A stretch of DNA of 64,000 bases from Patescibacteria group bacterium (GTDB taxonomy: Bacteria; Patescibacteriota; JAQUNI01). The stretch covers positions 64,311-128,310 of the forward strand of contig JAQUNI010000003.1 in assembly GCA_028717685.1 (NCBI GenBank). The letters run 5' to 3'. The position numbers were made by a program, and so were the translations under genes. Under the pieces are notes generated by a model. It made no database searches, was not told where the DNA came from, and worked only from the letters and a program-made list of their open reading frames with translations. Within the stretch, counting starts at the first letter, position 1, and the number at the start of each line of letters is the position of its first letter. This document shows, piece after piece, positions 3,517 through 63,876 of the stretch.

Positions 3517-5200
3517 ATGTACTATTTTTAACTTTTTGCAACTTCTTTTTCATTTTTTCAATCTTTGAGTTTAATTTTTTAATCTTAAGCTCTTTTTTGC
3601 GCATTTTTTTAGATAAAAGATCAATTTTTTCCTTGATTTTTTTTCTATAGGTTGTTCCGAAAAATCTTAAAAACAAAAAAGTTAATAAAAAACTATAAGA
3701 CAGGGCGAGTAAGCCGTTTATTCGGGAGGATTCCCGAAAGAGCCAGCCAAAATTTTTAAGACAAGGAATGTCAAAAAGGAACTTTTGATATAAATTATAA
3801 TGCCAGATTGGCATCGTGGACATAATGGCCGCAAAAATTCCTAAAATTGAAAAAAAGATTGTATATTTGTTTCTTAAGGAAGGAAATAAAGGGATTAGAA
3901 GAATAAAAGGCAGGATAAAAATCAAAATTTTAAAATAAAGATTTAAAACTTTACTTTCTGTAGGTTTTGCATTTAAATTTAAAGTTTGGATAATGGGATT
4001 AATTTTTTCTTTTGGTTTTTCAATATATTCTTTGGTCAGCATATAGCCAGGAGTTTGGGGAGTGTTTCTCGCAAAACTTGTTTTAACATAGGGAATGAGC
4101 CAATGGCTGGAGAAGAGAATAAAACAGAGAATACAAATAAAGATATTAGCGATATTTTTTAAAAAATTTGAATAATTGAGCCCCTTTAACCCATTCTTCA
4201 AAAGGGCATTTAGGATTTCAATAATTATGAATAATCCTAACATTATAGACGCATATACTAAATAATGAGGAGAAAAAGAGATAAAATTTAAAAGAAAAGC
4301 CAGAATGACAGCAAAACGCGCTTTTTGGACTTCAATGAGTTTGATAAATATAAGTAAAATCAGAGGAAGAAATAGGTAGGCAATCCAGTGATAAAAATGA
4401 GAAATACGGGATAGCGCATAGGGATTAAAGATATAAAATATTACCAAAAATGAGCTGTAAAGTTCTAGATAATTTTTTTGCTTAATAAAATTTTTTAAAA
4501 TTTTCTTTCCTAAAAAATATAAAGACAGTACACCTATAAACAGTACTTCTGAAATCACAAGCTTTATAGTCAATTCTGCTGACAAATGCAACAAACGATT
4601 AAATAAAGAATTGATTAAAACAAATGGAAATATATTTGTTGTTATGCCTTCGGTGAAGCTTCCGTCATTATTCCACAAAAACCATATATTCCCGAGAACC
4701 CTTTCTTGCTGGATGGGAAAACTAATATCCCCTATCTCAATCTGACCTTGACTTACTAAAACTTTTTGAAAAAGAACTAAGGTTAGAAAGACTAAGATAG
4801 CAACATTGATTTTTTCATAATCTATGTTTCTAAAGGTCTTTAAAGGGATGCGATTATCTTTTTCTATTTTTTGTTTTGTGAGAGATATTTTAGTATAGGT
4901 TAAAACACTGATAGCAAGAAATAAATAGGCAAACTTCGCGGCGAGATCAGCCAGGATGAGATCCTTAAAGATCATAAAGATCGGACATAGACTCAGAGAA
5001 ATCAAACCCAAAACAGCTGAAAGCCTGATTGAAATTTTAAGGATAATGGAACTGACAAGGGCACCAGTGAGCACAAGAATATAAATGGGCGCATTCAAAA
5101 GATAGAGCGAGATTAACACAATGCTAAGCCACAGGAAATAATAAGGGAGTGGATGGCGAACCCTAAAATTTTTAATACTTTTTATTACTTTTGAGAACAT
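3509..5200 (-). CDS. polytopic integral membrane protein (>=10 TM) with C-terminal Lys-rich coiled tail; possible GT-C/polymerase-like
   Basis: hydropathy pattern only; no recognisable catalytic motif. Confidence 0.45.
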   Translation of the reverse strand: MFSKVIKSIKNFRVRHPLPYYFLWLSIVLISLYLLNAPIYILVLTGALVSSIILKISIRLSAVLGLISLSLCPIFMIFKDLILADLAAKFAYLFLAISVLTYTKISLTKQKIEKDNRIPLKTFRNIDYEKINVAILVFLTLVLFQKVLVSQGQIEIGDISFPIQQERVLGNIWFLWNNDGSFTEGITTNIFPFVLINSLFNRLLHLSAELTIKLVISEVLFIGVLSLYFLGKKILKNFIKQKNYLELYSSFLVIFYIFNPYALSRISHFYHWIAYLFLPLILLIFIKLIEVQKARFAVILAFLLNFISFSPHYLVYASIMLGLFIIIEILNALLKNGLKGLNYSNFLKNIANIFICILCFILFSSHWLIPYVKTSFARNTPQTPGYMLTKEYIEKPKEKINPIIQTLNLNAKPTESKVLNLYFKILIFILPFILLIPLFPSLRNKYTIFFSILGIFAAIMSTMPIWHYNLYQKFLFDIPCLKNFGWLFRESSRINGLLALSYSFLLTFLFLRFFGTTYRKKIKEKIDLLSKKMRKKELKIKKLNSKIEKMKKKLQKVKNSTYA

Positions 5201-5209
5201 TTGGATATT

Positions 5210-18378: not shown

Positions 18379-19818
18379 TTAAGACATTGCTGATTTCGTT
18401 CCCCCTTGAGTTATTGCTTGAAAGGCGGCCTTTAGGAGTCTTGCATCTTCACGAAGAAAATCGAAGTTGCTCAAATCCCACCAGATTCTTCTTAAAATCC
18501 ATTCGGGGTTGAGGTAAAATCTGCGGTAAGCTTGCTTTTTGGCTTTTACTAAATCTTCTAGTGTCAGGTCGCGGGGAATATACTTGGGCCAAATTGATTT
18601 GAACTCATCCCCCAATTCCCCTCTGATGTACCGATCAATTAAATTAATATTGATTTTTCCCTCTTCAACGCCAGTTTTGTACAAATCCGCTCCAGGCATA
18701 ATAACAGTTATATGTATACCCATGACATCCACCTTAGAAATTAGACCAAAATTGACTGTGTCTTTAATTTCTTTCTTAGTTTCTCCAGGAAAACCTAGCA
18801 TCAGAAAAATGTTGCTTTGAATGCCGTACTTTCTGCACCATCTAATCGCGTTAAAGATATCTCGATTGTTAACATTTTTGTGGATGACTTCATTACGGAT
18901 TCTTTCATTGCCAGACTCAACACCGAAGAGTAGGTTATTGCAGCCAGCTTTTGCCATTAATTTAATCAATTCTTCGTTAACACTATTTGCCCTAGTCATT
19001 GCGCCCCACGTAGCGTTTAATCCCTTTTTGATTAATAATTGGCAAAAATTTTTAATATTTTCTCGATTTAAACTAAAAGTGTCATCATGGAAATGGAATT
19101 TTCCATTATATTGATTATATATAGTTTCCATTTCCTTAATGATGTTCTCTGCCGATCGAAAACGATAGTTTGTTTTATGGACAGGCCGACTGCAAAAACA
19201 GCAATGAAAAGGACAGCCACGTGAGCCAATCATTGAGGCTCTTTTATAAATTGCCGCGGCATCGTTTGTCAATTTGGTTTCAACTCCTCTGTGATAATTA
19301 GAAACATCGGTCAAATGTCGGGCGGGAAATGGTAAATCGTCAAGATTTTGTATTGGTTCTGCATAAAATACTCCTTTCACACGCTTGCCAGCTAATACTT
19401 TCTGAACAATTTTCAACATAGTGAGCTCTCCTTCACCAATAACATAAAAATCAAAAATCGGGAATCGCCGGGCGAAATCCGGATCTGCACTGATGTGGGG
19501 ACCACCTAAACCAACCATGGGACCATGGTTCCCCCACTCCTTCTTCATCTCCGAGGCTAACCGATAAGCAGAACGAATACTGGGTGATAAAGCGGATAAG
19601 CCAACGACTTTAGGATTTTCCTTCTCGATTTCTTGCATTAGTTTTTTTAGAGTTAATCCTTGCACTGTGACGTCGTACAACTTAACCGAAATATTATGTT
19701 TCTCTAAATAAGCAGCAATATAAAGGAGTCCTAAAGGAGGATCGCTGACTTCATCGCCCATCGGCTCATTTTTTCTGCTAAAAGTTATAGGACAATTAAT
19801 TAATAAAACTTGCGTCAT
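18379..19818 (-). CDS. cobalamin-binding-domain radical SAM enzyme (class B type)
   Basis: N-terminal Rossmann-like B12-binding region followed by GCPFHCCFCS (CX3CX2C). Confidence 0.8.
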   Translation of the reverse strand: MTQVLLINCPITFSRKNEPMGDEVSDPPLGLLYIAAYLEKHNISVKLYDVTVQGLTLKKLMQEIEKENPKVVGLSALSPSIRSAYRLASEMKKEWGNHGPMVGLGGPHISADPDFARRFPIFDFYVIGEGELTMLKIVQKVLAGKRVKGVFYAEPIQNLDDLPFPARHLTDVSNYHRGVETKLTNDAAAIYKRASMIGSRGCPFHCCFCSRPVHKTNYRFRSAENIIKEMETIYNQYNGKFHFHDDTFSLNRENIKNFCQLLIKKGLNATWGAMTRANSVNEELIKLMAKAGCNNLLFGVESGNERIRNEVIHKNVNNRDIFNAIRWCRKYGIQSNIFLMLGFPGETKKEIKDTVNFGLISKVDVMGIHITVIMPGADLYKTGVEEGKININLIDRYIRGELGDEFKSIWPKYIPRDLTLEDLVKAKKQAYRRFYLNPEWILRRIWWDLSNFDFLREDARLLKAAFQAITQGGTKSAMS

Positions 19819-24911: not shown

Positions 24912-26390
24912 TTAATAATTTTGTTCAAAGTCGGCAAGATGGGAGAACACAGCTTTAGCCCCGCGGGCAAGATATTTCAAATCATTGAGGTCGCGCAGCG
25001 AGACAATCTGGCGCAGGATAAATTCAGGATGGAAAGCGACTTTATAGGTGTCCTGGACAAATTTTTGCAATTGCGCGGAGGAAAAAGAGGTTTGCATTAT
25101 TGCCTCGCGCATATCATAACGGTTCCAGTCTTCAGAAGTGAGCCATTTTTTTTGCTGGCATTCACGAAACAAAGGGGTACCCGGGTAAGGGATGACAATA
25201 GTGGCTTGGAGTGTTTTAGCATAGCCTTTGCGCAGGAGATATTTTCCCAAGCGCACAGTTTGCCGCGCTTCTTCTTCGGTCTCCCACGGATAACCAAACA
25301 TAATTGTTACATGGGGAGACAATCCTGTTTTACGCGCCAGCTTGCAGGATGAGATGATCTTCTCTACCGTCATATTTTTACTTATCTTGTTTAACGTTTT
25401 CTCGCTGGCTGATTCTAAACCAAAAAGCAAAAAGCGGAAATTTGCCTTACGCATTAACCCATATTCTTTTTTGTTAAGGGCCCCGAAGCGCATATTGCAA
25501 TCCAAAATCACTTTTTTATTATAGCCGCGTTCAATCATCCCGCGGCAGAATTCTTGCAGCCATTCCCCTATCGGGAAAGTGCCTGTATCATCCATTATTT
25601 CCTTAATTTGATATTTTTTAATTAATTCTCCAATTTCATCCAAGACATTCTCTGGGGTGCGGGTGTGGTATTTTGGATAAAGCGTGGTCCAAGAACAAAA
25701 AGTGCACTCGTGATGCCAACAATCGCGGCCAGCCATAATATAAGTTCCTGGTGTGCGGGAGAAATTGCCTACATCGTAGGCATAATTTTGCCATTCTGTT
25801 AGTTCGCGGTCAATGAAGGGCAGGGTATTGAGATTATGGTTGAGCGCAAATTTTCCCGTATTTTTAATCTCTTCATTATCGCGGTAATAAATTCCTGGCT
25901 CTAGATTTTGGGGGACAGGTTCTAGATTGGGTTTTAGATTTTGAAGGAAGTTTAAAAGCAGAAAATCGTAATCGCCGCCAGTTAAAACAAAGTCCACTTT
26001 GGAGTTCTGGAATGATTCTTCAGGCAACGCCGTGACATGGTCGCCGACAAGAATCGTTTTTAATGCAGGGATTTCTTTTTTTAACGCATTGGTGATTTTC
26101 CAGTGCCTTTTTACGGTTGGAGTTTTCGTTTCCATTACCACAATGTTTGGTTGAATTTTTTTCACAAATTCCAACCATTCCGCGTATCTCATTTCTTCGG
26201 CAATGCCGTCTTTCCAAATCACCTTAAAACCATTTTTTTGAAGTAAAGTGGCAGCTTGCGCCGGCACCACTGGATAAATGGGGCAATGGCGGCGAAACCA
26301 TTGGAATTGGCGGTTCTGGGATAATAGAGGATAACCTTTTTTAGATGGCAGAGGTGGATAAGTAATTAAAGTTTTCAAGTGTTCTGACAT
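24912..26390 (-). CDS. cobalamin-binding-domain-like radical SAM enzyme, second copy, with CX4CX2C spacing
   Basis: N-terminal Rossmann-like region; GRDCWHHECTFCSW; 492 aa. Confidence 0.7.
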   Translation of the reverse strand: MSEHLKTLITYPPLPSKKGYPLLSQNRQFQWFRRHCPIYPVVPAQAATLLQKNGFKVIWKDGIAEEMRYAEWLEFVKKIQPNIVVMETKTPTVKRHWKITNALKKEIPALKTILVGDHVTALPEESFQNSKVDFVLTGGDYDFLLLNFLQNLKPNLEPVPQNLEPGIYYRDNEEIKNTGKFALNHNLNTLPFIDRELTEWQNYAYDVGNFSRTPGTYIMAGRDCWHHECTFCSWTTLYPKYHTRTPENVLDEIGELIKKYQIKEIMDDTGTFPIGEWLQEFCRGMIERGYNKKVILDCNMRFGALNKKEYGLMRKANFRFLLFGLESASEKTLNKISKNMTVEKIISSCKLARKTGLSPHVTIMFGYPWETEEEARQTVRLGKYLLRKGYAKTLQATIVIPYPGTPLFRECQQKKWLTSEDWNRYDMREAIMQTSFSSAQLQKFVQDTYKVAFHPEFILRQIVSLRDLNDLKYLARGAKAVFSHLADFEQNY

Positions 26391-31791: not shown

Positions 31792-32496
31792 TCAAACCTC
31801 ACGACCTAATCCCTCCTCCTTTAACCAAGTAAAAAATTCTATAAATTCTTGCGCATTACACGCATATCGCTTAGCATAATCTTCCAGTACCTCTGATTTT
31901 TCTAAAAAAGCAGATAAGGAATTGATCGGTACCTTGCCATTATCCCCGCGCACCAGACAAGCGATAAAAATTTTTTCATAACAACGAAGCAGGATATCAC
32001 TTGGATTTTGCATAATCCAAGCAGCTAGCGAGGCTTTAGTGAGTTTGCCTTTTTCATAAACTCTGCGCGCAGTGATGCCGCTTGAGACGACATCGTCAAC
32101 AACCGCAATATTTGAATCTTTTGGCGCTTGAAAATCAGCAATCCAGGCTTCGGGATTTTTATAACCAAGACGCTCCGCAGCAATATTGACGCCTTGGGCG
32201 ATTTTTAGAGTGCATCGCATAAACTTGGCTCCTTTGCCTGGCCAAATAATTGTTTGGAATAGCTCTGGTTGCCAAATTTTTAAGAGCAGATCATTTAACA
32301 TGTCTGGAGTCAGTATTTGAGATGGCGCTTTAAGTTCGGGAATGTCGTTGCTAAATCCCAATTGATCCAAGCCGATATCGTCAATAAAGATATTACCTTT
32401 TACCCACCAAAATTCGTTCACCACAAGATTCGGTAGTCTATTTCTCACCTTTTCTTGCCAAGACATCTTGATGCCTCCTCTAATTTTTTCTGGCAA
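31792..32496 (-). CDS. phosphoribosyltransferase-domain protein (type I PRTase fold), unknown substrate
   Basis: IAVVDDVVSSGITA PRPP-binding-like motif; 17-nt overlap with the upstream LOG-like gene. Confidence 0.5.
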   Translation of the reverse strand: MPEKIRGGIKMSWQEKVRNRLPNLVVNEFWWVKGNIFIDDIGLDQLGFSNDIPELKAPSQILTPDMLNDLLLKIWQPELFQTIIWPGKGAKFMRCTLKIAQGVNIAAERLGYKNPEAWIADFQAPKDSNIAVVDDVVSSGITARRVYEKGKLTKASLAAWIMQNPSDILLRCYEKIFIACLVRGDNGKVPINSLSAFLEKSEVLEDYAKRYACNAQEFIEFFTWLKEEGLGREV

Positions 32497-33007
32497 TCTT
32501 CATTGCCAGCTTCACTGTTTCTTGCGCGGATCGCGCAACATAATACGGATATTTTCGCCAATTCTCTAATTGCAAGATTGACAAAAAATCCTCGCCAAAA
32601 CCTTTAATGAATATCAAAGGTTTTTGGTAACGGTAGGCAATCGCGAACTCGGCGAGCGTGCCCGCGTCCCCTGGGATCACGATAATCGCGTCAGAACTTA
32701 AAATTCCGGCGAAAATGTAATCGCCAATGTCAACGGGTGTGCAGATTTCTACCGTAACCCAAGGAACGCTTAAACCCCGTTTGCGACCCGGCGTTCCGAC
32801 CACAATGCCGCTGGCTTGATAAGCGCCGCGACAAGCCGCTTCTACCACGCCCGAGCAGCCGCCGGTAATTAAAATCGCTTTGGCGGCCGCTACTGCGCGA
32901 CCAATTTCTTCCGCGAGAGCCAAGGTTGCCTCTTTTCTTCGGCGCCCGCCTCGCAGGTTTTTTTCTTCCGGTCCAATGATGCCGATTTGAATGTTTCTTT
33001 GCTTCAT
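32480..33007 (-). CDS. LOG/SLOG-family Rossmann protein (TIGR00725-like nucleotide N-glycosidase/binding)
   Basis: ILITGGCSGVVEAACRGA and PGDAGTLAEF motifs. Confidence 0.55.
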   Translation of the reverse strand: MKQRNIQIGIIGPEEKNLRGGRRRKEATLALAEEIGRAVAAAKAILITGGCSGVVEAACRGAYQASGIVVGTPGRKRGLSVPWVTVEICTPVDIGDYIFAGILSSDAIIVIPGDAGTLAEFAIAYRYQKPLIFIKGFGEDFLSILQLENWRKYPYYVARSAQETVKLAMKIARKN

Positions 33008-38916: not shown

Positions 38917-38985
38917 GTAATCAGTAATCAGTAATTAGTAATCAGGGAATTTATCCTTTTACCGATTACCGATTACCGATTACGA
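38917..38985. repeat. hyphenated inverted repeat built from GTAATCAG heptamer tandems, (gtaatcag)n ... (ccgattac)n
   Basis: ~29-bp arms; related element at 58891-58981. Confidence 0.65.
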
Positions 38986-40386
38986 ATTTAGGTATTCTTC
39001 CAATGTTTCTTCCCAATGCCTTAAGCGAGGCAGTTTCGTGTTTAATAAAATTGAATACATCGGTCTTTTGGCGCGGGAACGATATTCTTGACTGGAAATC
39101 GGCTTCATTTTTGCCTTAATTCCATTAAGGAGAAGAATTTTACGCGCGAATTGATACCAGTTGGTTTTACCTTCATTAGTAATATGATAAATACCAAAAG
39201 GTCTTTCCTGTTCTAGAATTTGACGGGTCGCGCGGGCCAAGTCACGGGTATAGGTCGGTTTTCCCCATTGATCATTAACGACCGTAAGTGTAGCATTGCT
39301 CTGTGCTTTCTGCAATATTTTATCTACAAAATTAATTCCTTCCTTTCCAAATAACCAAGAACTACGGATGAGATAATATTGTTCACAATGGCGGCGCAAA
39401 AGGGCTTCTCCTAAAAACTTAGATTTTCCATAGACGTTGATTGGATTGGGTTGGATAGTTTCTTTATATCCTTTACGATTTTTTCCTTCAAAAACATAAT
39501 CCGTGGAATAATGAACTAAAACAGCATTAAGTTTTTTTGCAATCTGCGCAAGATATCCGACAGCCTTGCCATTCACTTTTAGGGCTTGCTCTTGGTTTCC
39601 CTCTGCTTCTTCAACATTAGTGTAAGCGGCGGCGTTAATGATAATGTCTGGTTTCAGACGGGAAATTTTATTTCGCAGAGTCTTTCTTCTGGTAATATCC
39701 ACATTATTTTTATCCCAAGAAGTGAGCTCGCAATCTTGAAACTCTTGAACTAGGGATCTGCCTAGCATACCCTTGCTTCCTAAAACTAAGATTTTTTTCC
39801 CGAAATTTTCTAATAGTTTATTGCGGCTGCGGATAAGATCAGGATGGATTTTTATTCCCTTGCGCACAAATTCTTTGATATCTTCATTATAAGTATAGAG
39901 AAGAGCGCGATCTAAGGACTTTCGGGCAAGAGACAGGACTTCTTTTAATTCAACTGATCCAACTCCGCCTTTTGGCGCTGGCGCGGTTACATCCGCGAGA
40001 TAAATAATTTTGTCCAAAATATCCATATTTATTTTGGGAACACAGTGTCTTTCTATCGCCTGGAGGATTGTTTTGTCACGGACATTGAATTCTTGTTGAG
40101 CCAATTTCGCGCCCACCGCGGCATGCAAAAGCAGAATGTGTTTTTTGGTAAAAATGTCTATCTTAATGCGGTACTTTTTGGCGAGCAGAATCCAAGTTTC
40201 TTCGGACAAATCGCGCGCCATATCGTGAATTAAGCCGGTAAAATAGGCTTTCGCAGGATTCACACCGCCGATGATTTTTGCTATTTTTTCCGCCGTTTTT
40301 GCCACGGATAGACTATGAAAAAATCTATCCTCCGATAGACTCTTCTTCAGGTAGGCGGTAATTTTTTTTAAATCAGGGTTATTCAT
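38980..40386 (-). CDS. rmlD: fusion of a YqeK-like HD hydrolase domain (N-terminal) with dTDP-4-dehydrorhamnose reductase
   Basis: HSLSVAKTAEKIA..GLIHDMAR, then ILVLGSKGMLG...YGKSKFLGE...IYHITNEG. Confidence 0.75.
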   Translation of the reverse strand: MNNPDLKKITAYLKKSLSEDRFFHSLSVAKTAEKIAKIIGGVNPAKAYFTGLIHDMARDLSEETWILLAKKYRIKIDIFTKKHILLLHAAVGAKLAQQEFNVRDKTILQAIERHCVPKINMDILDKIIYLADVTAPAPKGGVGSVELKEVLSLARKSLDRALLYTYNEDIKEFVRKGIKIHPDLIRSRNKLLENFGKKILVLGSKGMLGRSLVQEFQDCELTSWDKNNVDITRRKTLRNKISRLKPDIIINAAAYTNVEEAEGNQEQALKVNGKAVGYLAQIAKKLNAVLVHYSTDYVFEGKNRKGYKETIQPNPINVYGKSKFLGEALLRRHCEQYYLIRSSWLFGKEGINFVDKILQKAQSNATLTVVNDQWGKPTYTRDLARATRQILEQERPFGIYHITNEGKTNWYQFARKILLLNGIKAKMKPISSQEYRSRAKRPMYSILLNTKLPRLRHWEETLEEYLNS

Positions 40387-45145: not shown

Positions 45146-45967
45146 CAACTTCACCCAGCTTAAGAGAACTATAATATTAAAACCTATTCTTCGTTGAGGG
45201 TAATGTTTTTTCCAAAAATATAGAAGGCTGTTTCGCAAATATAGCCAAGGCGCGAGAGAACCTTGGGATGATCCGTGATGATGATGAATTACTTCATCTT
45301 CTCCCCAGAAGATAATTTGAAAGCCAGCCTCCCGTGCTCTTTTGCAGAAATCAATGTCTTCTAAATACATAAAATAATTTTCATCAAAAAGCCCAATTTT
45401 TTCCAAAACGGATCGGCGGATGAAAAGGCAGGTGCCAGAAAGCCACTTTACCCTCCGAGTCTGGTAGAATTTTTTACGTGTCCAAAGATTAGGCATCACT
45501 ACCCTGCCCCAGGGAAGGATTTTGTAGAGTAAGGTTAGGTCTAAAAATTCTGTCGCGAGGGAGGGGTAATTTCCAAAATTAGCATTGATGCTTCCATCTA
45601 GCAGAGTCAGGCGGGGCGAAGTGATGCCCACGTCTGGATGGCGGTCTAAAAAGGTAATAATCTTGTTTAAATTTTGATGCGCAAAAGCGTCGGTGTTTAA
45701 AAGCAAAAGATATTCGCCTCGCGCGATCTTGATTCCTTGATTCACAGCGGCGGCGAACCCGCGATTTTTTTCATTGATAATCAGCCTTACTTGAGGAAAA
45801 TCTTTTTTAATTCTCCCGACAGAGTTATCTTCAGAATTGTTATCTATGACAATTGCCTCAATAGGTATTTTAAGAAAAGCCGCGAATACTTTAGATAGGC
45901 ATTCTAAAGTCAGGGTGCAGGTATTATATGAAGGAATAATTATAGAAAGTTTAATCTTATTTCGCAT
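45089..45967 (-). CDS. GT2 glycosyltransferase
   Basis: LSIIIPSYNTCTL...VIDNNSEDNS. Confidence 0.75.
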   Translation of the reverse strand: MRNKIKLSIIIPSYNTCTLTLECLSKVFAAFLKIPIEAIVIDNNSEDNSVGRIKKDFPQVRLIINEKNRGFAAAVNQGIKIARGEYLLLLNTDAFAHQNLNKIITFLDRHPDVGITSPRLTLLDGSINANFGNYPSLATEFLDLTLLYKILPWGRVVMPNLWTRKKFYQTRRVKWLSGTCLFIRRSVLEKIGLFDENYFMYLEDIDFCKRAREAGFQIIFWGEDEVIHHHHGSSQGSLAPWLYLRNSLLYFWKKHYPQRRIGFNIIVLLSWVKLRIKILKVKFQKSKVKSTS

Positions 45968-47324
45968 TTTTTTGGTTAATTAGCTGATTGTAAATTGCGA
46001 GTAATCCTATAATATACCAAAATACCATTCCATAGTACAGCCCAATTAAGGTAGCTTCCACCATTGAATTTAGCAGCACGATAATGAGCGTGGAAACAAA
46101 TCCCAGATAAAGCATTTTTTCCTCCGGATTCAAAGAGATTTTTTGAGCCTTTTTAATTTCTAAATAAATGGCGCGAATAACCAGCATAAAAGCGGCAAAA
46201 CCGATTATTCCGAGTTCAAGAAGCACTTGCAGAAAAAAATTATTACTTTCCGTTTCCACGGACCAAGGCAAAAGATTTTTGTATTCCAATTTTAAATTGC
46301 CCGTGCCTACACCCAAGATGGGATTATGAACAAAGATTTGATAAGCAGAACGGAATTCCACTATCCGAAAACGGGTATTGGGATCCGTCAAAACTCGCGT
46401 CAGACGATCTAAAAATTTATCAGAATAAGAGGCAAGGGGGATAGCGATTACGGCAAGAAGGACGCAGATAAAAAGGATAGCAAAGAGTTTTTTAACTTTT
46501 TGTTTTCTGAAAATATAAATAAAACCAGCCATCAGGGAAAAAATCTCGCCTTTACCAAGGGTTAAGAAGGTAGCCATTCCACCCACAATCGTTTCGGCAA
46601 AGAGAAGCATTTTCAACCATTTATTACGGGTAGTTAATAATAGAATATAAGTGAATGGCAGAGTCATAATAATAATGGCCGCAATGTAAACCCATTTCCC
46701 TACCGGTGTGATTATCGCTTCACGGGCTAGGGCATAGTCTCCTTGAAAACCACCCAGAGAGATGACTTTGAAAATTAACTGGGTAGCAACCAACAATCCG
46801 GTTATGGGGATAGAAAAAAGAGCGATTTTAAAATCCCTTTTGTTTTTGATGAGATTTACGGCTAAAAGCAAGATTAAAAAATGAAAACCAAGATTGCGCA
46901 GGGCAATGACGGCACGGGAAAGATTATCCGCCCAGCCCAAAGATAAGACAGATAGAAAGATATACAAAAGAAAGCATCCTAAGAGTAAAGGAAATCTTAT
47001 TTGCTTAAATTGTTTTTGGGCAATGAGCTTCAAAATAAAGAATAAAGTTAAAATAATGACCAAAATTTCAGCGAGGCTTACTTGGTAATACCAATCCTGG
47101 ATGCGGATGGTAGCTATTTGACCGAAGACAATAGCAGGCGGAATCAGAATAAGGACAAAAACAGGGTTTTTGAGGTAAAGGAAGATAAGAATGGCGAGAC
47201 CAAAAATTATGCCAAAAGTTAAGAGTAAATGCCCCCATCCCTCGTCTCCCCAATTAGAAAACAAGGGTATAAGGATACCGAATAATAGAATAAGTATGGA
47301 AATAAGAAGGATTTTTTTGACCAT
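45957..47324 (-). CDS. O-antigen ligase/polymerase-family membrane protein (Wzy_C-like)
   Basis: ~11 TM; conserved HNPILGVGTGN...LELGIIGF loop region. Confidence 0.6.
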   Translation of the reverse strand: MVKKILLISILILLFGILIPLFSNWGDEGWGHLLLTFGIIFGLAILIFLYLKNPVFVLILIPPAIVFGQIATIRIQDWYYQVSLAEILVIILTLFFILKLIAQKQFKQIRFPLLLGCFLLYIFLSVLSLGWADNLSRAVIALRNLGFHFLILLLAVNLIKNKRDFKIALFSIPITGLLVATQLIFKVISLGGFQGDYALAREAIITPVGKWVYIAAIIIMTLPFTYILLLTTRNKWLKMLLFAETIVGGMATFLTLGKGEIFSLMAGFIYIFRKQKVKKLFAILFICVLLAVIAIPLASYSDKFLDRLTRVLTDPNTRFRIVEFRSAYQIFVHNPILGVGTGNLKLEYKNLLPWSVETESNNFFLQVLLELGIIGFAAFMLVIRAIYLEIKKAQKISLNPEEKMLYLGFVSTLIIVLLNSMVEATLIGLYYGMVFWYIIGLLAIYNQLINQKNAK

Positions 47325-47388
47325 AGTTTTAAGCTTTACTATACATCAAAAGTCAGTTTTTGTCAAATAAAATGGTAAAAAAATAGGG

Positions 47389-47439
47389 TAAGGAGAGAAT
47401 TAAATTGAATTGAAAATCTTTTTAATCTCCTTACCCTGC
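47389..47439 (-). terminator. Rho-independent terminator after 47448..48287 (11-bp stem gggtaaggaga/tctccttaccc, T-run on minus strand)
   Basis: perfect stem followed by TATTTTTTTAC on the minus strand. Confidence 0.55.
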
Positions 47440-47447
47440 TCCGTGCC

Positions 47448-48287
47448 TTAATTGACAATCGCTGTGCGATTGTCAGCGCCGGAGTTGATAAAGGTGCCGC
47501 GGTTATCCAATTTACCTTTGAACTGGTAAACCGGATATTTATTAGATGTTCCATCTGCCACCTTGATGAGATAAACAGCCGTTGTGCCATTGACTTTCAC
47601 CTCGGATGTGTATCTTGCTCTTTTATCTGACCAAAGCACGAAGGCAAATTCTTTATCTGGCACGTATGATCCGCTCCATTCCCAACTGCCGTTCTTATAT
47701 GATATTGGCACGCTTGCCCAACCTGTCACATCTGAAGAGAGGTAGATGGTTGTTCCTATACTTTCTGCGGTTGTTAAAGTGAATTTGACATTGAGGATAC
47801 CTACACCACCGGACAGTTGTAGAACCTTACTATCAGTGTCAAACATTAATTGGAAAGAACCGCTGCCGTCTATGTTTTGTAATTTGACATTATTAACCCA
47901 CAAATCATAGATGACACTACCGCCAATGAATGATGCCTTAATATAACCCGGTAGAGTGGTCCATACCTTAACACGGCAGGAGTTAAATTCATTGATGCTG
48001 TTGAAAGTAATTTTTTTCACATTAGGATATTCATTCCCGTCTGCGAAAAGATTACTTTCCACTTCAATGGCTCCGGTTGCGGATGGCGCCATTTTACTTT
48101 CCGTGGTTATGCTGGGCAATATCGTCCCTTCCGGGTATGACAGAGATAACCTAGCAATAATGGTGGAAACCTGCTCTCCCATTTCATCGCCTAGAATACT
48201 ACTAAATGGGTTGCGTGCCTGATCGCAGCCCAAGAACAGAAATGTCAGTAAAACCACCATCAGGCAGGTGGTTATTATCCTTATCAT
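47448..48287 (-). CDS. hypothetical lipoprotein, beta-rich
   Basis: signal peptide plus lipobox FLFLGC; strong GGAGG SD. Confidence 0.5.
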   Translation of the reverse strand: MIRIITTCLMVVLLTFLFLGCDQARNPFSSILGDEMGEQVSTIIARLSLSYPEGTILPSITTESKMAPSATGAIEVESNLFADGNEYPNVKKITFNSINEFNSCRVKVWTTLPGYIKASFIGGSVIYDLWVNNVKLQNIDGSGSFQLMFDTDSKVLQLSGGVGILNVKFTLTTAESIGTTIYLSSDVTGWASVPISYKNGSWEWSGSYVPDKEFAFVLWSDKRARYTSEVKVNGTTAVYLIKVADGTSNKYPVYQFKGKLDNRGTFINSGADNRTAIVN

Positions 48288-48323
48288 TACTTAATACCTC
48301 CAGTTCAGAAATTTACGGTTTCA

Positions 48324-48369
48324 CCCTAACGGGTGATCTCCCGTTAGGGATGACAGGTCAGGAGACCTG
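48324..48369 (-). promoter_or_regulatory. tandem hairpins in the 5' leader of 47448..48287 (ccctaacggg/cccgttaggg, then caggtc/gacctg)
   Basis: perfect 10-bp and 6-bp stems, no T-run; first hairpin is an everted copy of the CGTTAG element. Confidence 0.35.
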
Positions 48370-48383
48370 AACCAACGTAATGG

Positions 48384-49124
48384 TTATATTCCTGGTCCGG
48401 GTTCAATATTGTCCCCTTCGATTCGGAAATTAATACTCCCTTTCTGGGTTGACGGGTTGATTTTAACCCACTTACTACTAGATTTATGCACCGCTGCCCA
48501 GAAGGAGTCAGCCGTCTGAAGTTCTATGCCTAATACTTGAATTGTGGCATTTCCTTGATAATCTCCCGCAGGTGGCATGGGGAATGAAGCCTCCAAACAT
48601 TTTGTATTGGGGTTGTAGGTCATTTCCCTGCCTTGGGCTGGGCGCCAAGCTGTGGAGCTGTCAACAAAATAGATTCTTTCACCAGGTCCGGGTTGTCGGA
48701 TAAGTCTTGCGTCAACAGCTACAAGGAGATTATTACCATCGCTAGAAATGTCAATAATATAGTCTCCCGTACCTTGAGTAATAGATGCTGTTGGTGCAAT
48801 ATAAGACGTTGACGTTGCTGAAGCTGCGGCGGCTGCGGAAGCAGATGCAGATGCTGTCGTTGCCGCTGTTGCCGCGGATGATTGTCCGAAAAGTCGCAGT
48901 TTTGGCTCTGGGTGCACTACAGGACCTTGATACCCTGGCGTACAGTGCCAATTCACGGGCTCGCGTTGCTCCATTTGCATCATTAACGCGCGAGCAGCCA
49001 TTGCCTTGGTGACTATTATCTCATTATCGTTGCTGCATTTTGAGGGGTATACAGCGCAACCCATCAGAACAATTGTGAGACTAAGAAATAAACCTATTAA
49101 CAGAACAGACAAAACCTTTTTCAT
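48384..49124 (-). CDS. hypothetical lipoprotein with Ala/Ser/Thr-rich linker
   Basis: lipobox LMGC; SSAATAATTASASASAAAAASATSTS; 4-nt overlap with the upstream gene. Confidence 0.5.
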   Translation of the reverse strand: MKKVLSVLLIGLFLSLTIVLMGCAVYPSKCSNDNEIIVTKAMAARALMMQMEQREPVNWHCTPGYQGPVVHPEPKLRLFGQSSAATAATTASASASAAAAASATSTSYIAPTASITQGTGDYIIDISSDGNNLLVAVDARLIRQPGPGERIYFVDSSTAWRPAQGREMTYNPNTKCLEASFPMPPAGDYQGNATIQVLGIELQTADSFWAAVHKSSSKWVKINPSTQKGSINFRIEGDNIEPGPGI

Positions 49125-49945
49125 TTGAGAAACCTCCTTGCATTTGGATCTTGCGAAAAACCGACTCCGATCAAGACTCTGTCTTGATCAAATTCGGGAT
49201 TTATTTTACCCATCCGTCGGTCTTTCTCTTTTACTAACATTCTCTCCCAAGAAATTTCCAGCCAGAATGGGAGAAGATTAATTCTGGCATACACTCCGCC
49301 ATTGGGTCTAAGCTCACTTTCCCAAATCTCACTCTGGTAATAGGCCCAAGTTGTTTGAAGACCTATTTCCAGACTTTGTTGAAAATTCACGCCTAGACGT
49401 AGACGCAGTTCACTATCTGTTCCGGGATAACGGATACCGCCGAGTTTACCGAGGTCAAATGTGGTATAGGCGGCATCAAAACTAAATAAACGGTGCCATG
49501 CTCGCATCTGGGCGAGAAATAAATTCGTGTCAAATTCACCGTTCCATTTCAGTTTTAATTCATCGCGCGTCCTGACATTGCACCAAACACTACCTAATCC
49601 CCAATTCAGATTAATCTCTGGCACGATGAAAGCGCCCAAGATTATTTTTTCATCCTTTTCTAGTCTCGCAAATTGGGGATTCCATTTTTGATAACCTTGG
49701 ATGTGGACCATTGGTCCGCCGTCCAAAGAAAGACACCATGGCAGGTCAAACGGCTTTTGCATTACGATATACATCACCGTATTTTCTTCATCACGGAAAT
49801 TACGGCTGTGGATGATATCAAAGAACACCGGCTCATCTATTTTCATATGGGCTTCGGTGTATAGATATTTTGCCGTATCCGCGTCTGCAAAAACTTTGAC
49901 CACTAACATCAACATCATTACCAAAACCACCAGCAATTTTTTCAT
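49121..49945 (-). CDS. secreted protein with amphipathic beta-strand pattern (beta-barrel-like)
   Basis: signal peptide; alternating hydrophobic C-terminal strands (RLRLGVNFQ, LEIGLQTTWAYYQ, GVYARINLL). Confidence 0.4.
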   Translation of the reverse strand: MKKLLVVLVMMLMLVVKVFADADTAKYLYTEAHMKIDEPVFFDIIHSRNFRDEENTVMYIVMQKPFDLPWCLSLDGGPMVHIQGYQKWNPQFARLEKDEKIILGAFIVPEINLNWGLGSVWCNVRTRDELKLKWNGEFDTNLFLAQMRAWHRLFSFDAAYTTFDLGKLGGIRYPGTDSELRLRLGVNFQQSLEIGLQTTWAYYQSEIWESELRPNGGVYARINLLPFWLEISWERMLVKEKDRRMGKINPEFDQDRVLIGVGFSQDPNARRFLK

Positions 49946-49994
49946 TTTATCACCTCTCGATCTTGTAGAATCTTTAGTTCTAATTAAGACACTC

Positions 49995-50096
49995 CGTCAC
50001 TGCGAGGAAGACACAAAGTGCCGACCAAAGCAATCTCGTTTTTATATTATGATGAGATTGCTTCGTCGGGCTTGAAAGCCCTTCTCGCAATGACGG
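49995..50096. ncRNA. candidate structured RNA: 13-bp closing stem, long 16-17-bp hairpin and GGGCUUGAAAGCCC tetraloop-like hairpin
   Basis: ccgtcactgcgag/ctcgcaatgacgg; ccgaccaaagcaatctc/gagattgcttcgtcgg; GC-rich island in the 5' leader of 49121..49945. Confidence 0.35.
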
Positions 50097-50186
50097 AAAT
50101 GCCCACCTTATTACAGATGATGTAGTTCTATAGAATATGAGTTCAATTATTTTTCAAAGAACATTCTTAAAATTATAACTAAAAAA

Positions 50187-50945
50187 TTATTTTTCAACAA
50201 TCTTTAAGCCGCCAATGTAGTGGTCTGACTTTTTCTCTTCTATTGTCGTATCGCCATTTTGCACGACCTCCATAACCTCTGTTTTTTCATTTTCTTGCGG
50301 TTCGGGGGGCATAATAGGCGTTGGTTTTTGCGACAGACTTTGGGTTTTCCAAAGAATTACTATCGCGCTAATCGCAAGGCCTACGAATAAGCTTAAGATA
50401 ATGTTTAGCAAAATATTCGGTTTCACGGGCCGCTCCGAGACGAGCGGCGTGTCTAAAACCACGATTCCGACTTCATCTCCTAAATTATAATAAGCTTTGC
50501 CTTTTTTGGAAAAATTGTAAATAATGGCGTTCATAATATTTTTTGCTTGCGAGGCTTCGGGATGATAGACATTGATTTCAATAATACTTGTGTCCGTGGA
50601 AACGCGGGAACTAACCATTTTAGCCCATTTTTCCCGGAGATCTTTTTCTTTCTTTGGAAAATAAATTGAATCAATCGGAAACCCAGAATTCAAGACATCA
50701 TTCATAAAAGAACTGCTTTTTATAATTTTCGCAAACAGCATAGCCAACCTCTCGGCAGACTGGCTTGCTTTATACATATCTAGGTCGGCATTTGTTTTTT
50801 GGGTAATCAAAATCCGGCCGCTTGCTCTGTAAAGCGGTTTTTGAAGGGAACTTGCGATTAAACTTACCACAATCGTGGCAAGAGTAATAATCGTAATAGT
50901 GCGCCAGCTTTGGCGGATCCGTTGTAAATATTGTTGATAATTCAT
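50187..50945 (-). CDS. Wzz/PCP-like chain-length determinant protein
   Basis: N-terminal TM, ~150-aa extracytoplasmic domain, second TM near the C-terminus. Confidence 0.5.
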   Translation of the reverse strand: MNYQQYLQRIRQSWRTITIITLATIVVSLIASSLQKPLYRASGRILITQKTNADLDMYKASQSAERLAMLFAKIIKSSSFMNDVLNSGFPIDSIYFPKKEKDLREKWAKMVSSRVSTDTSIIEINVYHPEASQAKNIMNAIIYNFSKKGKAYYNLGDEVGIVVLDTPLVSERPVKPNILLNIILSLFVGLAISAIVILWKTQSLSQKPTPIMPPEPQENEKTEVMEVVQNGDTTIEEKKSDHYIGGLKIVEK

Positions 50946-58982: not shown

Positions 58983-60236
58983 TTAATGTACCGCGCAGGT
59001 GATGCAGGGATCATAGGCGCGGATGAGCATTTTGATATCGTCTTCTTTTTTGTTATTCTCTAAAAATTTTTCCAGATCGTTTTCCAGATTCGCTAAGAAT
59101 TGAGCAGTGGGGGTAATAATATTGCAGTTTTTAATAAAACCCCTCGCATCGGTTTCATAATAATGAAAAAGAAGTCCGCGGGGTGCTTCAGTAACCCCCA
59201 ATCCCCTGCCCGCCTTCGTTTTGTATTTTTGTATTTTTTCCGTTTTGATTTTTAATTTTGAAATGATTTTGATTGTTTCTTCTGTCGCGTGAATTACTTC
59301 AATCATCTGGGCAAGAAGATTATAAAAGATATTATAGCAAGGGAGGGAAAATTCAGTGCGAGCGAGAGCTTTATGCGCGAATGGATTCAACTTTTTGTAA
59401 TTTAAATTGACGCGGCTTAATGCTCCTACAAGATAACTTTCGCCAACAATTTTGACTTTTTTGATTAAGTCCTCTGCCATTTCTTGCTTTTCGTTCGCCT
59501 TTCTCAAAAATATTCGGGGGGAGTAAGTTTTATTTTTAGGCAGTTTAATCTGACCATTATAAAGGGCATATTCTTGTTTATTAGACAAGGCGGCAAAAAC
59601 AGTTAAGCGTTGAAATTCTGGGAAGGTGAGATTATTTAAAAAGTCAAAAAGGTCATTGGCGGTTTCCAGATTTTTTTTCGCAGCATTTAAGATTTTATTA
59701 AGCATTTTTCCCGAGGGCAACTTGCGAAAGCCGCCGATGGCAGTAGTTGTCGGGTGGATGTTGCGGCCGCCGATTGCATTTAGAATGAGGTTGCCAAAGT
59801 CGCGGATTTGGATTGCTTCCTTCGCAGTTTTGGGATTGATTTTCACTAAAGCTAAATCGTTTTTTAAATTAAAAAAATCAGAGAGGGCTAAAAAATAGAT
59901 ATGCGTCATATGGCTTTGAATGAATTGACCGAACAGCATTAGTTTGCGCAGGGTTGTTGTTTGAGGGCTTGCTTTAACGCGTAAAGCATTCTCTATCGCT
60001 TTGATAGCAGTCAAATTATGGACAGTGGGACAAATGCCGCAGATTCGCGCCGTAATCCAAGGCGCTTCAGTGTATTTTCGTCCGATTAATATTCCTTCAA
60101 TAAGCCTCGCTCCTTCTTTGACCTCCAAACGCGCTTCGTGGATGAGACCATTTTCCAGCTTACCCACAAATCCCGCGTGACCTTCAATTTTGTTGATTGC
60201 GTTGATAGAAATGGTAATTTTTTTATTAGTTGGCAT
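58983..60236 (-). CDS. [NiFe]-hydrogenase large subunit (group 3-like), ends at the terminal His with no C-terminal extension
   Basis: N-terminal RICGICP and C-terminal DPCITCAVH nickel-binding motifs. Confidence 0.85.
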   Translation of the reverse strand: MPTNKKITISINAINKIEGHAGFVGKLENGLIHEARLEVKEGARLIEGILIGRKYTEAPWITARICGICPTVHNLTAIKAIENALRVKASPQTTTLRKLMLFGQFIQSHMTHIYFLALSDFFNLKNDLALVKINPKTAKEAIQIRDFGNLILNAIGGRNIHPTTTAIGGFRKLPSGKMLNKILNAAKKNLETANDLFDFLNNLTFPEFQRLTVFAALSNKQEYALYNGQIKLPKNKTYSPRIFLRKANEKQEMAEDLIKKVKIVGESYLVGALSRVNLNYKKLNPFAHKALARTEFSLPCYNIFYNLLAQMIEVIHATEETIKIISKLKIKTEKIQKYKTKAGRGLGVTEAPRGLLFHYYETDARGFIKNCNIITPTAQFLANLENDLEKFLENNKKEDDIKMLIRAYDPCITCAVH

Positions 60237-60364
60237 TTTATCTATTTTACTAATAGAAAATTTTTGATTTTTAACTAATTTGTATTGACTTAATTTCTAT
60301 TGAAATAATCCAATAATCAATTAAAAATTAAATAAAAATTAAGAAGTAAAAATTAAAAATTAAC

Positions 60365-61090
60365 TTATTTGTTCCCAAAAATTTCCAGAACCCTTTCATA
60401 CTCTTTATTGCCTAAAAGTTCTTGCATCTTTTTTTCATTCGGTTCGTTTACCCTGCCGCGGCAGCCAGTGCAGGGCAGGTTACTTTTTAAGCAGATTGCT
60501 TCGCATCCGCCACGGATCATCGGTCCGAGACAGGGTTTGCCCTCTAGAAGCAGGCAGGGATAATTTTTAATTTGGCATTCATAGCAGACTGGACGGTCAG
60601 GCAGATGCGGTTTACTGCCAATCGCTACTTGCCTTAAGACTTCTAAAATTTCTTGATTGTTTGGCGGACAGCCGGGAATAATAAAATCCACGGGTACATA
60701 AGCAGAGAGGGGTTCTATTTTTCTATTATCAATTTTTTTTCCGGAAGACGGATAAACATATTTTAAGATTTTATCTTTATTGCCGTAATTTTTGATTTTT
60801 TGGATATTACCTAGATGAGCGCAGGCGCCTAGAGCGATCAAGGTTTTAGCTTGTTTACGCAGATTTTCCAGTTTTATTTTTTCTTCTTCCCTTGTGACCG
60901 TTCCTTCAATAAATGCAATATCAATGTCTATTTCACTATTAGCTTTTTTGTCCTCAATGAGATGGAAATCCACTAATTCAAAATCCTCCAAGACTTTAAA
61001 AAAAGTTTGGCCTAAATCTAAAATAGAGAAAAGGCAGCCATTACAAGAGGTGAGCGAAGTAATAATTAAAGTTTTTTTCTTTTTTTTCAT
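60365..61090 (-). CDS. [NiFe]-hydrogenase small (delta-type) subunit
   Basis: TSCNGC proximal-cluster motif, multiple Cys clusters, 241 aa. Confidence 0.75.
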   Translation of the reverse strand: MKKKKKTLIITSLTSCNGCLFSILDLGQTFFKVLEDFELVDFHLIEDKKANSEIDIDIAFIEGTVTREEEKIKLENLRKQAKTLIALGACAHLGNIQKIKNYGNKDKILKYVYPSSGKKIDNRKIEPLSAYVPVDFIIPGCPPNNQEILEVLRQVAIGSKPHLPDRPVCYECQIKNYPCLLLEGKPCLGPMIRGGCEAICLKSNLPCTGCRGRVNEPNEKKMQELLGNKEYERVLEIFGNK

Positions 61091-63059: not shown

Positions 63060-63230
63060 GAAACAATTTTAAATTCTAAATTTTTAATTTTAAATCAAAT
63101 CTAAATTTTAAATTATTTAATTTTAACCCCCTTTTTCCCTTTGTTTTAAAATTTAAAATTAGGATTTTAAAATTGATTTAAAATTCAGAATTAAAAATTT
63201 GAAATTTTTAAATAATGTTGGGTAAATCTT
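63060..63230. repeat. AT-rich inverted repeat region (taattttaaatcaaatctaaattttaaatt ... aatttaaaattaggattttaaaattgatttaaaatt)
   Basis: imperfect ~30-bp arms. Confidence 0.45.
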
Positions 63231-63876
63231 TAATCTCTGCCCAGGAGAATACCGGTCCTTCTTTACAGACGTATTTTCCGTTCGGGAGCGCGCAGTGTTG
63301 GCAGATGCCGACGCCGCAGTGCATGCGCCGTTCCAAAGAAAGATAAATCTCATCATCTTTAAACTTTAATCTTTTCAGCCTCTCCATAACGAATTTATAC
63401 ATTATCGGCGGTCCTACCACGAGAGCCAGAGCATGTTCAAGGGTTTTGTATTTATCAAATAAAGTGGTAATCACGCCAATATTTCCTTTCCATTGCAGCT
63501 GGCATTGATCCAGGGTTACTTTAACATCAATATCCTGCTTTTGCCAAGAAGGGAATTCCTTTTCAAAAATGCGGTATTCTTCGCATTTAGTACCATAGAA
63601 GAGCTGGACCTTTTTGTAAGTAGCGCGGCGATGTAGAATGCTTAAAATTACGGAACGTAAAGGGGCGAGACCAATGCCGCCGGCAATAATGAGCAAATTT
63701 TTATGTGCCAGTTTTTTCAAGGGAAAACCGCGTCCATAAGGTCCTCTCACGCCCACATAGTCGCCTTGATGCTTATGAAAGAGGGCAGAGGTGACAATAC
63801 CTTTTTCCTGAACCGTGATTTGAAATTGTTTGCTGTTGTATTGGCTGGAGCAAAAGGCGAAAGGCGCTTCACCCAC
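63208..63876 (-). CDS. hydrogenase gamma-type FAD/NAD and 2Fe-2S subunit (HydG/PyrK-like), N-terminally truncated
   Basis: GGIGLAPLRS, C-terminal CGVGICQHC..C; ~40 N-terminal residues of the FAD barrel are missing; reading frame closes at 63892. Confidence 0.65.
   Translation of the reverse strand: MGEAPFAFCSSQYNSKQFQITVQEKGIVTSALFHKHQGDYVGVRGPYGRGFPLKKLAHKNLLIIAGGIGLAPLRSVILSILHRRATYKKVQLFYGTKCEEYRIFEKEFPSWQKQDIDVKVTLDQCQLQWKGNIGVITTLFDKYKTLEHALALVVGPPIMYKFVMERLKRLKFKDDEIYLSLERRMHCGVGICQHCALPNGKYVCKEGPVFSWAEIKDLPNII

Follow-up and report, generated by a model that had tools for sequence, protein, structure and literature searches.

What do three exported proteins without recognisable domains do in the middle of a surface-glycan locus, and why do they differ so strongly between strains whose neighbouring genes are nearly the same? 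The question is raised by a 64 kb stretch of DNA (the window) from a metagenome-assembled genome of Patescibacteria, the Candidate Phyla Radiation (CPR), to which PHW01_04750 and PHW01_04745 are exact protein matches. Three minus-strand open reading frames (ORFs) of the window, here named A (49121..49945), B (48384..49124) and C (47448..48287), constitute the cassette under study. A first-pass annotation had seen in them a secreted island of two lipoproteins and a beta-barrel-like protein, compositionally distinct and possibly foreign. The three-gene surface module is supported by the present analysis; the foreign island is replaced by a resident hypervariable cassette whose alleles are exchanged. 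Relatives are labelled L001 to L015 (loci) and P0008, P0009 and P0027 (proteins), and the window is the reference for all identities.

Gene content and locus context

Gene A encodes a Sec-exported protein of an orphan family (274 aa), predicted to form a barrel of ~14 beta-strands, and genes B and C encode lipoproteins of 246 and 279 aa, respectively. The ORFs lie exactly where the first-pass annotation had placed them, A and B overlapping by 4 nt in an ATGA read directly from the sequence, and each of the three is preceded by a Shine-Dalgarno-like site. The ATGA overlap and the Shine-Dalgarno sites, together with a conserved TATAAT, a conserved terminator and a separate wzy promoter beyond it, mark A-B-C as a single transcription unit with its own candidate promoter, leader and terminator. 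Secretion signals on all three proteins and lipoboxes on two of them had also been proposed, and these are present. The N-terminus of A is a Sec-type signal, composed of MKK, a 13-residue hydrophobic core and VFA before DAD, without a lipobox. B carries the lipobox LMGC (Cys23), followed in all B homologues by Ala, and C carries FLGC (Cys21), followed by an invariant acidic residue at position +2. This residue 22 of C is Asp in most homologues and Glu in L014 and L015. Enterobacterial lipoproteins with Asp at this position stay in the inner membrane. The lipobox was found in 8/8 B and 11/11 C sequences, as well as in the L014 and L015 versions, with an invariant Cys. Neither Lgt nor LspA was seen among the window ORFs covered by the general scans.

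The cassette sits in the middle of a Wzx/Wzy-type surface-glycan locus, a context that the first-pass annotation had missed. A Wzz/CpsC-type chain-length determinant (50187..50945, minus strand; Pfam Wzz 6e-08, TIGR01006 1e-15) lies directly upstream of A in every locus, which places the cassette beside the polysaccharide co-polymerase of a Wzy-dependent pathway. Directly downstream of C, again always, is a Wzy_C-family polymerase or ligase with its own promoter (45957..47324, minus strand; Pfam Wzy_C 6e-16). In every assembly with enough flanking sequence, the order is leucyl-tRNA synthetase, DUF5656, HtrA, Wzz, A, B, C, Wzy_C, a GT2 and two GT4 glycosyltransferases, RmlC, NUDIX and epimerase, and the core Wzz-A-B-C-Wzy_C-GT2-GT4 recurs in at least seven independent assemblies. 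Even the two most distant loci, in which A is only 33% and 29% identical, keep Wzz, A and two successive lipoproteins, with a Wzz that is 58-59% identical to that of the window. The surrounding super-locus, devoted to a rhamnose/uronic-acid glycan, spans ~8 to 51 kb of the window and has housekeeping genes on both outer sides. It encodes a Wzx flippase, RmlA-D, two UDP-glucose dehydrogenases, an aminotransferase, an acetyltransferase, methyltransferases, two B12/radical-SAM enzymes and about ten glycosyltransferases.

Two observations concern the assemblies themselves. Submitter taxon names are inconsistent: relatives that share the gene order appear as Doudnabacteria, Parcubacteria or Patescibacteria group, and L001/L009 (CAYWOB010000004.1) bears the label ‘uncultured Candidatus Saccharibacteria’. 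At the position of C in L001 (9556-10503, between B and Wzy_C), no gene is called in the NCBI assembly; the near-identical Joint Genome Institute (JGI) contigs L002 and L003 have a 280-aa C gene, and L001 may represent an annotation gap or a disrupted copy.

Divergence and allele exchange

Sliding-window identity on a MAFFT alignment, per-gene identity and dN/dS delimit a divergence island at 47420..50235. Between the window and L004, ten flanking genes show 90-97% protein identity and a synonymous divergence (dS) of 0.24-0.30, against 87% and 0.59 for A, 50% and 1.05 for B, and 34% and a saturated 2.3 for C, with dN/dS below 0.45. Nucleotide identity to L004 falls from ~0.9 to 0.4-0.5 over ~49,100 to 47,420 and is back at 0.9 at the terminator; it is already lowered from ~50,235, in the leader. 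Gene A is a mosaic, in which one block is 0.97 identical to L006 and 0.82-0.85 to L004, and the next is 0.94 identical to L004 and 0.73 to L006. The alleles of B group as window and L006 versus L004 and L002, and those of C as window, L002 and L006 versus L004 versus L013, both discordant with the flanks. Within B and C, the anchor-proximal segments are conserved and the distal domains are variable. The raised synonymous divergence, the sharp borders and the discordant groupings together point to old functional alleles that are swapped by homologous recombination, a pattern that simple fast evolution would not fit.

A diversity-generating retroelement was considered and rejected: the window holds no template repeat, no reverse transcriptase occurs among the scanned ORFs, divergence extends over whole genes, and dS is saturated. 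No repeats of cassette sequence were found elsewhere in the window. The maintenance of alleles argues for an external selective agent, such as a phage, a partner cell or a predator. It speaks against a purely internal export machine, since strains that differ in B and C have kept Wzz, Wzy and the adjacent glycosyltransferases conserved.

These features are those of a resident cassette. The foreign origin suggested earlier does not survive the comparison with relatives, all of which carry the cassette at the same Wzz-A-B-C-Wzy site, even where A is 29-33% identical, nor the HMMER scan of 1.84 billion representatives, which returned no relatives from outside the small clade. Traits of a genomic island were not found either: there is no presence/absence polymorphism among the relatives, no mobility genes, tRNA or direct repeats were found at the cassette borders, and only the alleles differ.

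Rarity of the three families

The statement that the proteins have no recognisable domains proved correct, as A, B and C are without a match in Pfam and NCBIfam. Searches of Pfam, NCBIfam and PDB with single sequences and profiles at E up to 10 returned noise only, and the matches to DUF2509, ChAPs and DUF5060 were dismissed as such. Relatives are few, 5-10 in 5.8 billion proteins: a word-indexed search found 6 clusters for A, 7 for B and 10 for C. Exhaustive HMMER searching with the A profile added three distant members and one artefact; the latter, P0027, is a tandem-repeat adhesin-like protein of 3295 aa that matches in seven short stretches, attributable to repeats or composition. Only four true relatives of A exist among the 1.84 billion representatives, and A is carried by only 2 of 185,579 species genomes and by four JGI metagenome contigs. 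No literature describing this module was found under beta-barrels or hypervariable lipoproteins in Patescibacteria. By these searches, A, B and C are new families, confined to one small clade of Patescibacteria. Variable surface proteins, or accessory modules of capsule-type loci, are known as kinds of system from other bacteria, but not from CPR, nor with this composition.

Predicted structures of the cassette proteins

AlphaFold2 models were obtained for A, from an alignment of 6 sequences, and for C. Neither has a periplasmic substrate-binding fold, which answers the structure check that the first-pass annotation had proposed. The model of A (mean predicted local distance difference test score, pLDDT, 74.6; predicted template modelling score, pTM, 0.66) consists of 13-14 long antiparallel strands. 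Compared with PDB by Foldseek, it matched membrane beta-barrels exclusively, with template modelling (TM) scores of 0.2-0.55, led by Tom40/VDAC, maltoporin, OccD, the intimin beta-domain and OmpG. The beta-barrel-like strand pattern claimed for A is thus backed by a moderate-confidence model and by structural matches that are all barrels. In most strands, the hydrophobic face is the less conserved one, and the opposite polar face is more conserved and rich in invariant Arg, Glu and Asp; the alternation is clear in about half of the strands. In the predicted structure, such a pattern is that of a barrel whose exterior faces lipid and whose lumen is polar. The C-terminus of A in the window, ...GVGFSQDPNARRFLK (RRFLK), has a non-aromatic last residue; three homologues have F or Y as the last residue (LRRF, RRNF, RRCY), and the rest end in RR or K.

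No structure fits the A model better overall than OmpG (TM 0.52/0.55 over 260 columns). Like A, this small monomeric porin of 14 strands has a Sec signal and amphipathic strands. However, it is only ~10% identical to A and gives no profile match, and the A of the window ends in RRFLK, without a final aromatic residue; moreover, neither an outer membrane nor a beta-barrel assembly machinery (BAM) is known for the lineage of A. Membership of A in a known outer-membrane-protein family was not detected by Pfam or NCBIfam at E up to 10 or by PDB sequence matching, and the Poly_export/SLBB, Caps_assemb_Wzi, alginate-export and YjbH-family domains had no match in A, B or C. Outer-membrane biogenesis genes were sought by extending the contig on one side, which revealed more glycan genes and MurJ only.

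Protein B is built of a conserved, Cys-flanked helical N-domain (aa 23-61), an Ala/Ser/Thr spacer (aa ~82-107, nt 48804-48881) and a variable C-terminal domain (aa ~120-246, nt 48387-48767), with column entropies of 0.3-0.6 in the N-domain versus 0.9-1.4 in the C-terminal domain. The Ala/Ser/Thr linker noted at first is present in the B of the window; it does not hold as a feature of the family. The stretch ranges from 0 to ~45 residues, is short or absent in P0008, P0009 and L014 (absent in L014), and the L015 version of B is a 69-aa lipoprotein comprising the conserved Cys-flanked N-domain alone. Judging from these homologues, the stretch is a dispensable, length-variable spacer and not the family core.

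The model of C (pLDDT 62.9) is all-beta, with two sandwich-like domains, of which the distal one (aa ~163-270, nt 47478-47801) resembles the carbohydrate-binding module (CBM) families CBM20 and CBM48. Its Foldseek matches include the glycogen-binding domain of AMPK beta1 (prob 0.97, TMt 0.62, root-mean-square deviation 5.6 over 96 columns, E 0.056, for a model of pLDDT 63), accompanied by weak matches to CGTase domain E, the CBM20 of STBD1, Sus-type GH13 and enzymes bearing CBM26, CBM41 and CBM58. These matches are individually insignificant; their common theme is the carbohydrate-binding sandwich. In B, a V-x-F/Y-x-x-D-x-x-x-W...M...W/Y motif region recalls CBM20/CBM48 modules, and the L014 version reads GVFMTGDFEDEW...M...Y. 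The same motif was aligned by hhalign between B 133-180 and C 163-205 (E 0.005), and one B homologue has a weak Pfam CBM_48 match (E 0.16). This value is the best overall against the CBM20/CBM48 profiles, which C does not match, and PDB profile searches were negative. C, by its model, and probably B end in beta-sandwiches that are weakly CBM20/48-like. As lipid-anchored surface beta-sandwich proteins, they also resemble the Sus-type surface glycan-binding lipoproteins. Unlike the CBM modules and the Sus-type proteins, however, the cassette gives scores that all stay below significance, and its context is glycan synthesis, not uptake. A link of C to phage receptor-binding proteins was also considered; a Foldseek search of viral structures with the C model gave nothing.

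Candidate promoter, leader and hairpins

The candidate promoter of the cassette (50172..50200, minus strand), read directly from the sequence, consists of TTGTTG (50200-50195), a 17-nt spacer and TATAAT (50177-50172), and straddles the Wzz stop codon. Directly past this stop codon, TTTTTTAGTTATAATTTTAAGA...TTTGAAAAA is kept in L001-L007, and the remaining ~200-nt leader varies. In the window, the leader (~215 nt) contains an imperfect 105-nt palindrome (49993..50097, minus strand), whose arms were located by self-BLAST and pattern search, and the leader fold reaches -76.5 kcal/mol (z -7.0). Different palindromic inserts occupy this site in the relatives, and L004 has a nested extra insert. The palindrome of the window, CCGTCATTGCGAG...CTCGCAGTGACGG (49993-50097), is common only to the window and L004 (6980-7130), where the insert is GC-rich; L001-L003 and L006/L007 carry unrelated palindromes at the same position. 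Scanned against Rfam at gathering thresholds, the whole window yielded no family, which rules out a known riboswitch or small RNA upstream of A, and the differences between the inserts of different genomes rule out a conserved regulatory RNA. Of the ‘structured RNA’ proposed earlier, the strong hairpin stands, but it belongs to a palindromic insert that varies between relatives. On sequence grounds, the leader palindromes look like small mobile hairpin elements, unlike regulatory RNA.

The B-C spacer (48288..48383, minus strand) folds into two stem-loops (-34.2 kcal/mol, z -3.0) and contains the Shine-Dalgarno site of C (GGAGG). One hairpin, GTTGGTTCAGGTCTCCTGACCTG, lies after B in the window (48354-48376) and in L004 (8709-8731), and in the leader upstream of A in L006 (3367-3389). 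Related hairpins, CGTTGGTTCC...GGAACCAA, occur downstream of B in L002 and L006. These hairpins might mark recombination junctions or stabilise the transcript. At the end of the cassette, the clean terminator noted at first was recovered as an intrinsic terminator (47377..47436, minus strand) with the stem GGGTAAGGAGA...TCTCCTTACCC followed by U7 (dG -22.2 kcal/mol, z -4.9). It is kept in L002 and L006, and in L004 the stem sequence differs yet still pairs. Directly past it, a promoter scan found the wzy promoter TTGACA-17-TATAGT (47366-47338), which is conserved in the relatives.

Composition and codon usage

The claim that the region is GC-richer than its flanks is correct in that the bin 48001-49000 has the highest GC of all 1-kb bins in the window (0.473). 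The cassette genes have a GC content of 0.43/0.47/0.43 versus a mean of 0.383 (sd 0.044). The excess, however, arises mainly at codon position 2 (0.42 in C and 0.50 in B versus a mean of 0.33), as a result of the Ala/Ser/Thr/Gly/Pro content. GC at codon position 3 (GC3) is 0.45/0.39/0.43, inside the range of the neighbours, and was discarded as a sign of foreign origin. In L002, whose GC is lower, the cassette reaches 0.42-0.47 versus 0.33-0.38 in the flanks. The most GC-rich gene in the window, above the cassette, is a SLOG cluster4 (LDcluster4) gene at 32480-33007 (0.504, GC3 0.51).

Synonymous codon choice, corrected for amino-acid content, does set the cassette apart from its flanks, contrary to the outcome that the first-pass annotation had named as refuting: its genes are the three most deviant of 34 (z -3.4, -3.6 and -2.4), and they favour NNA codons for Ala, Pro, Thr and Ile and AGT for Ser. 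The same deviation recurs in three other genomes, L004, L002 and L006 (z -3.5 to -7.6), giving a span of -2.4 to -7.6 across the four.

Comparison with known surface systems

The closest parallels in layout come from capsule loci. GfcABCD/YjbEFGH is an accessory module of E. coli group 4 capsule loci whose role is still undefined (PMC8592465). Like the cassette, it is a small operon with overlapping genes in a Wzy-dependent capsule locus, and it combines a Ser/Thr-rich element, a lipoprotein, an exported partner and a non-acylated beta-barrel, with barrels of 12-13 strands (PMC8592465). Unlike the cassette, it has no sequence or profile similarity to A, B or C, resides in a real outer membrane and is conserved, whereas the cassette is hypervariable and its producer is regarded as monoderm. 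Wzi, an outer-membrane beta-barrel lectin that retains group 1 capsule, is likewise a capsule-locus beta-barrel that has its role at the surface, on the completed polymer, and not in synthesis (PMC3791409). It differs from A in having 18 strands and a Pfam family of its own, unmatched by A, and a lectin function of the cassette would sit in the lipoproteins instead. Alleles of wzi are variable enough to be used for Klebsiella capsule typing.

A different parallel is offered by the variable surface lipoproteins of bacteria that are wall-less or reduced and host-associated, Vlp/Vsp of Mycoplasma and Osp/Vls of Borrelia, which vary by phase switching, repeat slippage or silent-copy gene conversion within one genome. 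As in the cassette, the lipoprotein signal and the anchor region are conserved, low-complexity spacers differ in length, and the exposed parts are highly divergent and kept so by selection. In contrast to these systems, the cassette is present in one copy per genome, has no repeats or silent cassettes in the window, and varies by allele replacement between strains.

Proposed function and alternatives

Our preferred reading, which we hold only tentatively, is that A, B and C form an exposed, glycan-associated complex of a barrel and two lipoproteins, that its sandwich heads bind carbohydrate and that it is under diversifying selection. Of its elements, the operon, the export signals, the fixed gene order, the swapping of alleles and the deviant codon usage are observed. 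The cassette would be the exposed protein part of the glycan layer made by the locus. A would be a Sec-exported porin-like beta-barrel, as its moderate-confidence model predicts. B, translationally coupled to A, would probably dock on it through the Cys-flanked N-terminal helix near the lipid anchor and would carry a variable beta-sandwich head and, optionally, a stalk of Ala/Ser/Thr, and C would be a second lipoprotein with two beta-sandwich domains. The CBM-like character of the heads is weakly suggested by the structural matches, and from it we infer carbohydrate binding: the heads of B and C would most likely bind either the cell's own polymer, held or organised as by Wzi or GfcBCD, or the glycans of a partner cell. 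Exposure would subject the cassette to diversifying (frequency-dependent) selection, under which old allelic lineages would be kept and swapped by homologous recombination via the conserved wzz and wzy flanks.

Several points weigh against this reading. CPR are treated as monoderm in the literature, and a membrane-type beta-barrel has no obvious home in such a lineage; the predicted barrel was, moreover, modelled from 6 sequences. No carbohydrate-binding family reaches significance (Pfam E 0.16; Foldseek E 0.02-0.06; C pLDDT 63), and an interaction of A, B and C is suggested by gene overlap and co-conservation only. Finally, in the loci compared, the glycosyltransferases adjacent to the cassette are conserved between strains with completely different B and C, and if B and C bound the cell's own glycan, their variation would not be explained by changes in these enzymes.

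The same features bear on four other explanations. The hypervariable distal domains, conserved anchors and swapped alleles resemble host-range determinants, and with the CBM-like heads they are compatible with a host-attachment or host-access module of an episymbiont, in which B and C would be lectin-like adhesins for partner glycans, A a pore in the partner membrane or an actor at the contact site, and the link to wzz and wzy purely positional. That A lacks a membrane anchor, has amphipathic strands like those of outer-membrane proteins and comes from a producer thought to have no outer membrane would fit as well. However, the Wzz-A-B-C adjacency is kept at 29-33% identity of A, which speaks for a functional link with the glycan pathway; the Pfam, NCBIfam and PDB searches gave no match to a family of toxins, pore-formers or adhesins, and single-chain porin-type barrels normally require an insertion machine. 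We consider this module unlikely. The position of the cassette between the chain-length determinant and the polymerase, its barrel and lipoproteins with gfc-like overlapping genes, the many conserved Arg and Glu on the polar strand faces of A, and the UDP-glucose dehydrogenases of the locus, which suggest an acidic polymer, would also suit a polymer export conduit, with A as the channel and B and C as accessory lipoproteins, a counterpart of Wza/Wzp, AlgE/AlgK or GfcBCD. Such a conduit is quite unlikely, as export machines are normally conserved, and here Wzz and Wzy are 92-96% identical against 34-50% for B and C; in addition, no Poly_export/SLBB, Wzi, AlgE or GfcD signature is present, no second membrane is known that needs crossing, and B can shrink to a 69-aa stub.

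The low-complexity Ala/Ser/Thr stretch of B also invites comparison with acceptor glycoproteins, such as the substrates of PglL or the products of S-layer glycoprotein loci. Enzymes of the PglL type act on Ser within Ala/Ser/Pro-rich stretches of lipoproteins; rml genes and glycosyltransferases lie close by, and the adjacent Wzy_C gene scores best against a ‘putative O-glycosylation ligase’ model, although below its cut-off. B, and perhaps C, would then be O-glycosylated by the neighbouring Wzy_C protein acting as an oligosaccharyltransferase. Since the stretch is short or missing in P0008, P0009, L014 and L015, it is not the feature for which the family is conserved; the presence of a Wzz partner speaks for the Wzy_C protein being a polymerase, and A is left unexplained, which makes this account distinctly improbable. 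A genomic island acquired from another phylum would account for the GC above the flanks and the deviant synonymous codon usage. It is largely refuted, and we give it next to no credence: the cassette has the same position in every relative, its borders are free of mobility genes, tRNA and direct repeats, no homologue occurs outside the clade among the 1.84 billion representatives and the 185,579 species genomes, and the GC excess falls mostly on codon position 2.

Other features of the window

Outside the cassette, GC content divides the window into a low-GC part (1-24 kb, 0.29-0.35) and the remainder (24-64 kb, 0.36-0.47), and the former may be the strain-variable part of the glycan locus. 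Three large minus-strand ORFs at 883-7765 (877, 563 and 851 aa) have no Pfam match and an unusually low GC of 0.30-0.31; two encode polytopic membrane proteins whose external domains are large, and the product of the third has one hydrophobic segment at its N-terminus and one at its C-terminus. Within the glycan locus, the B12-binding radical-SAM enzymes (18379-19818 and 24912-26390) could modify sugars, for example by methylation, and the ORF at 38980-40386 (468 aa) encodes an RmlD-type dTDP-4-dehydrorhamnose reductase fused to an N-terminal HD phosphohydrolase domain. Genes at 58983-61090 encode [NiFe]-hydrogenase-like large and small subunits (NiFeSe_Hases, Oxidored_q6), beside which are encoded a FAD/NAD-binding iron-sulfur protein (63208-63876) and an EamA transporter.

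Significance for the Patescibacteria cell surface

A large part of bacterial diversity is believed to consist of Patescibacteria, and the members studied so far live in attachment to other cells. Their surface proteins and the determinants of partner specificity are very poorly known, and the cassette is a short and well-delimited candidate here: it is exported, tied to a surface-glycan pathway and the sole exchanged part of an otherwise conserved region. It is also a natural marker for strain typing in metagenomes, and its predicted porin-like barrel offers a concrete test of the assumption that these cells have no second membrane. In one reading that we regard as a long shot, A would be a genuine lipid-embedded barrel of the porin type belonging to this clade, residing in an outer lipid layer or exported into the membrane of a partner under the guidance of two swappable lectin-like lipoproteins. 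If A is embedded in an outer lipid layer, it would reveal a diderm-like envelope within a radiation considered monoderm; if it inserts into the membrane of the partner, the cassette would be a compact device for host access, whose alleles set the host range.

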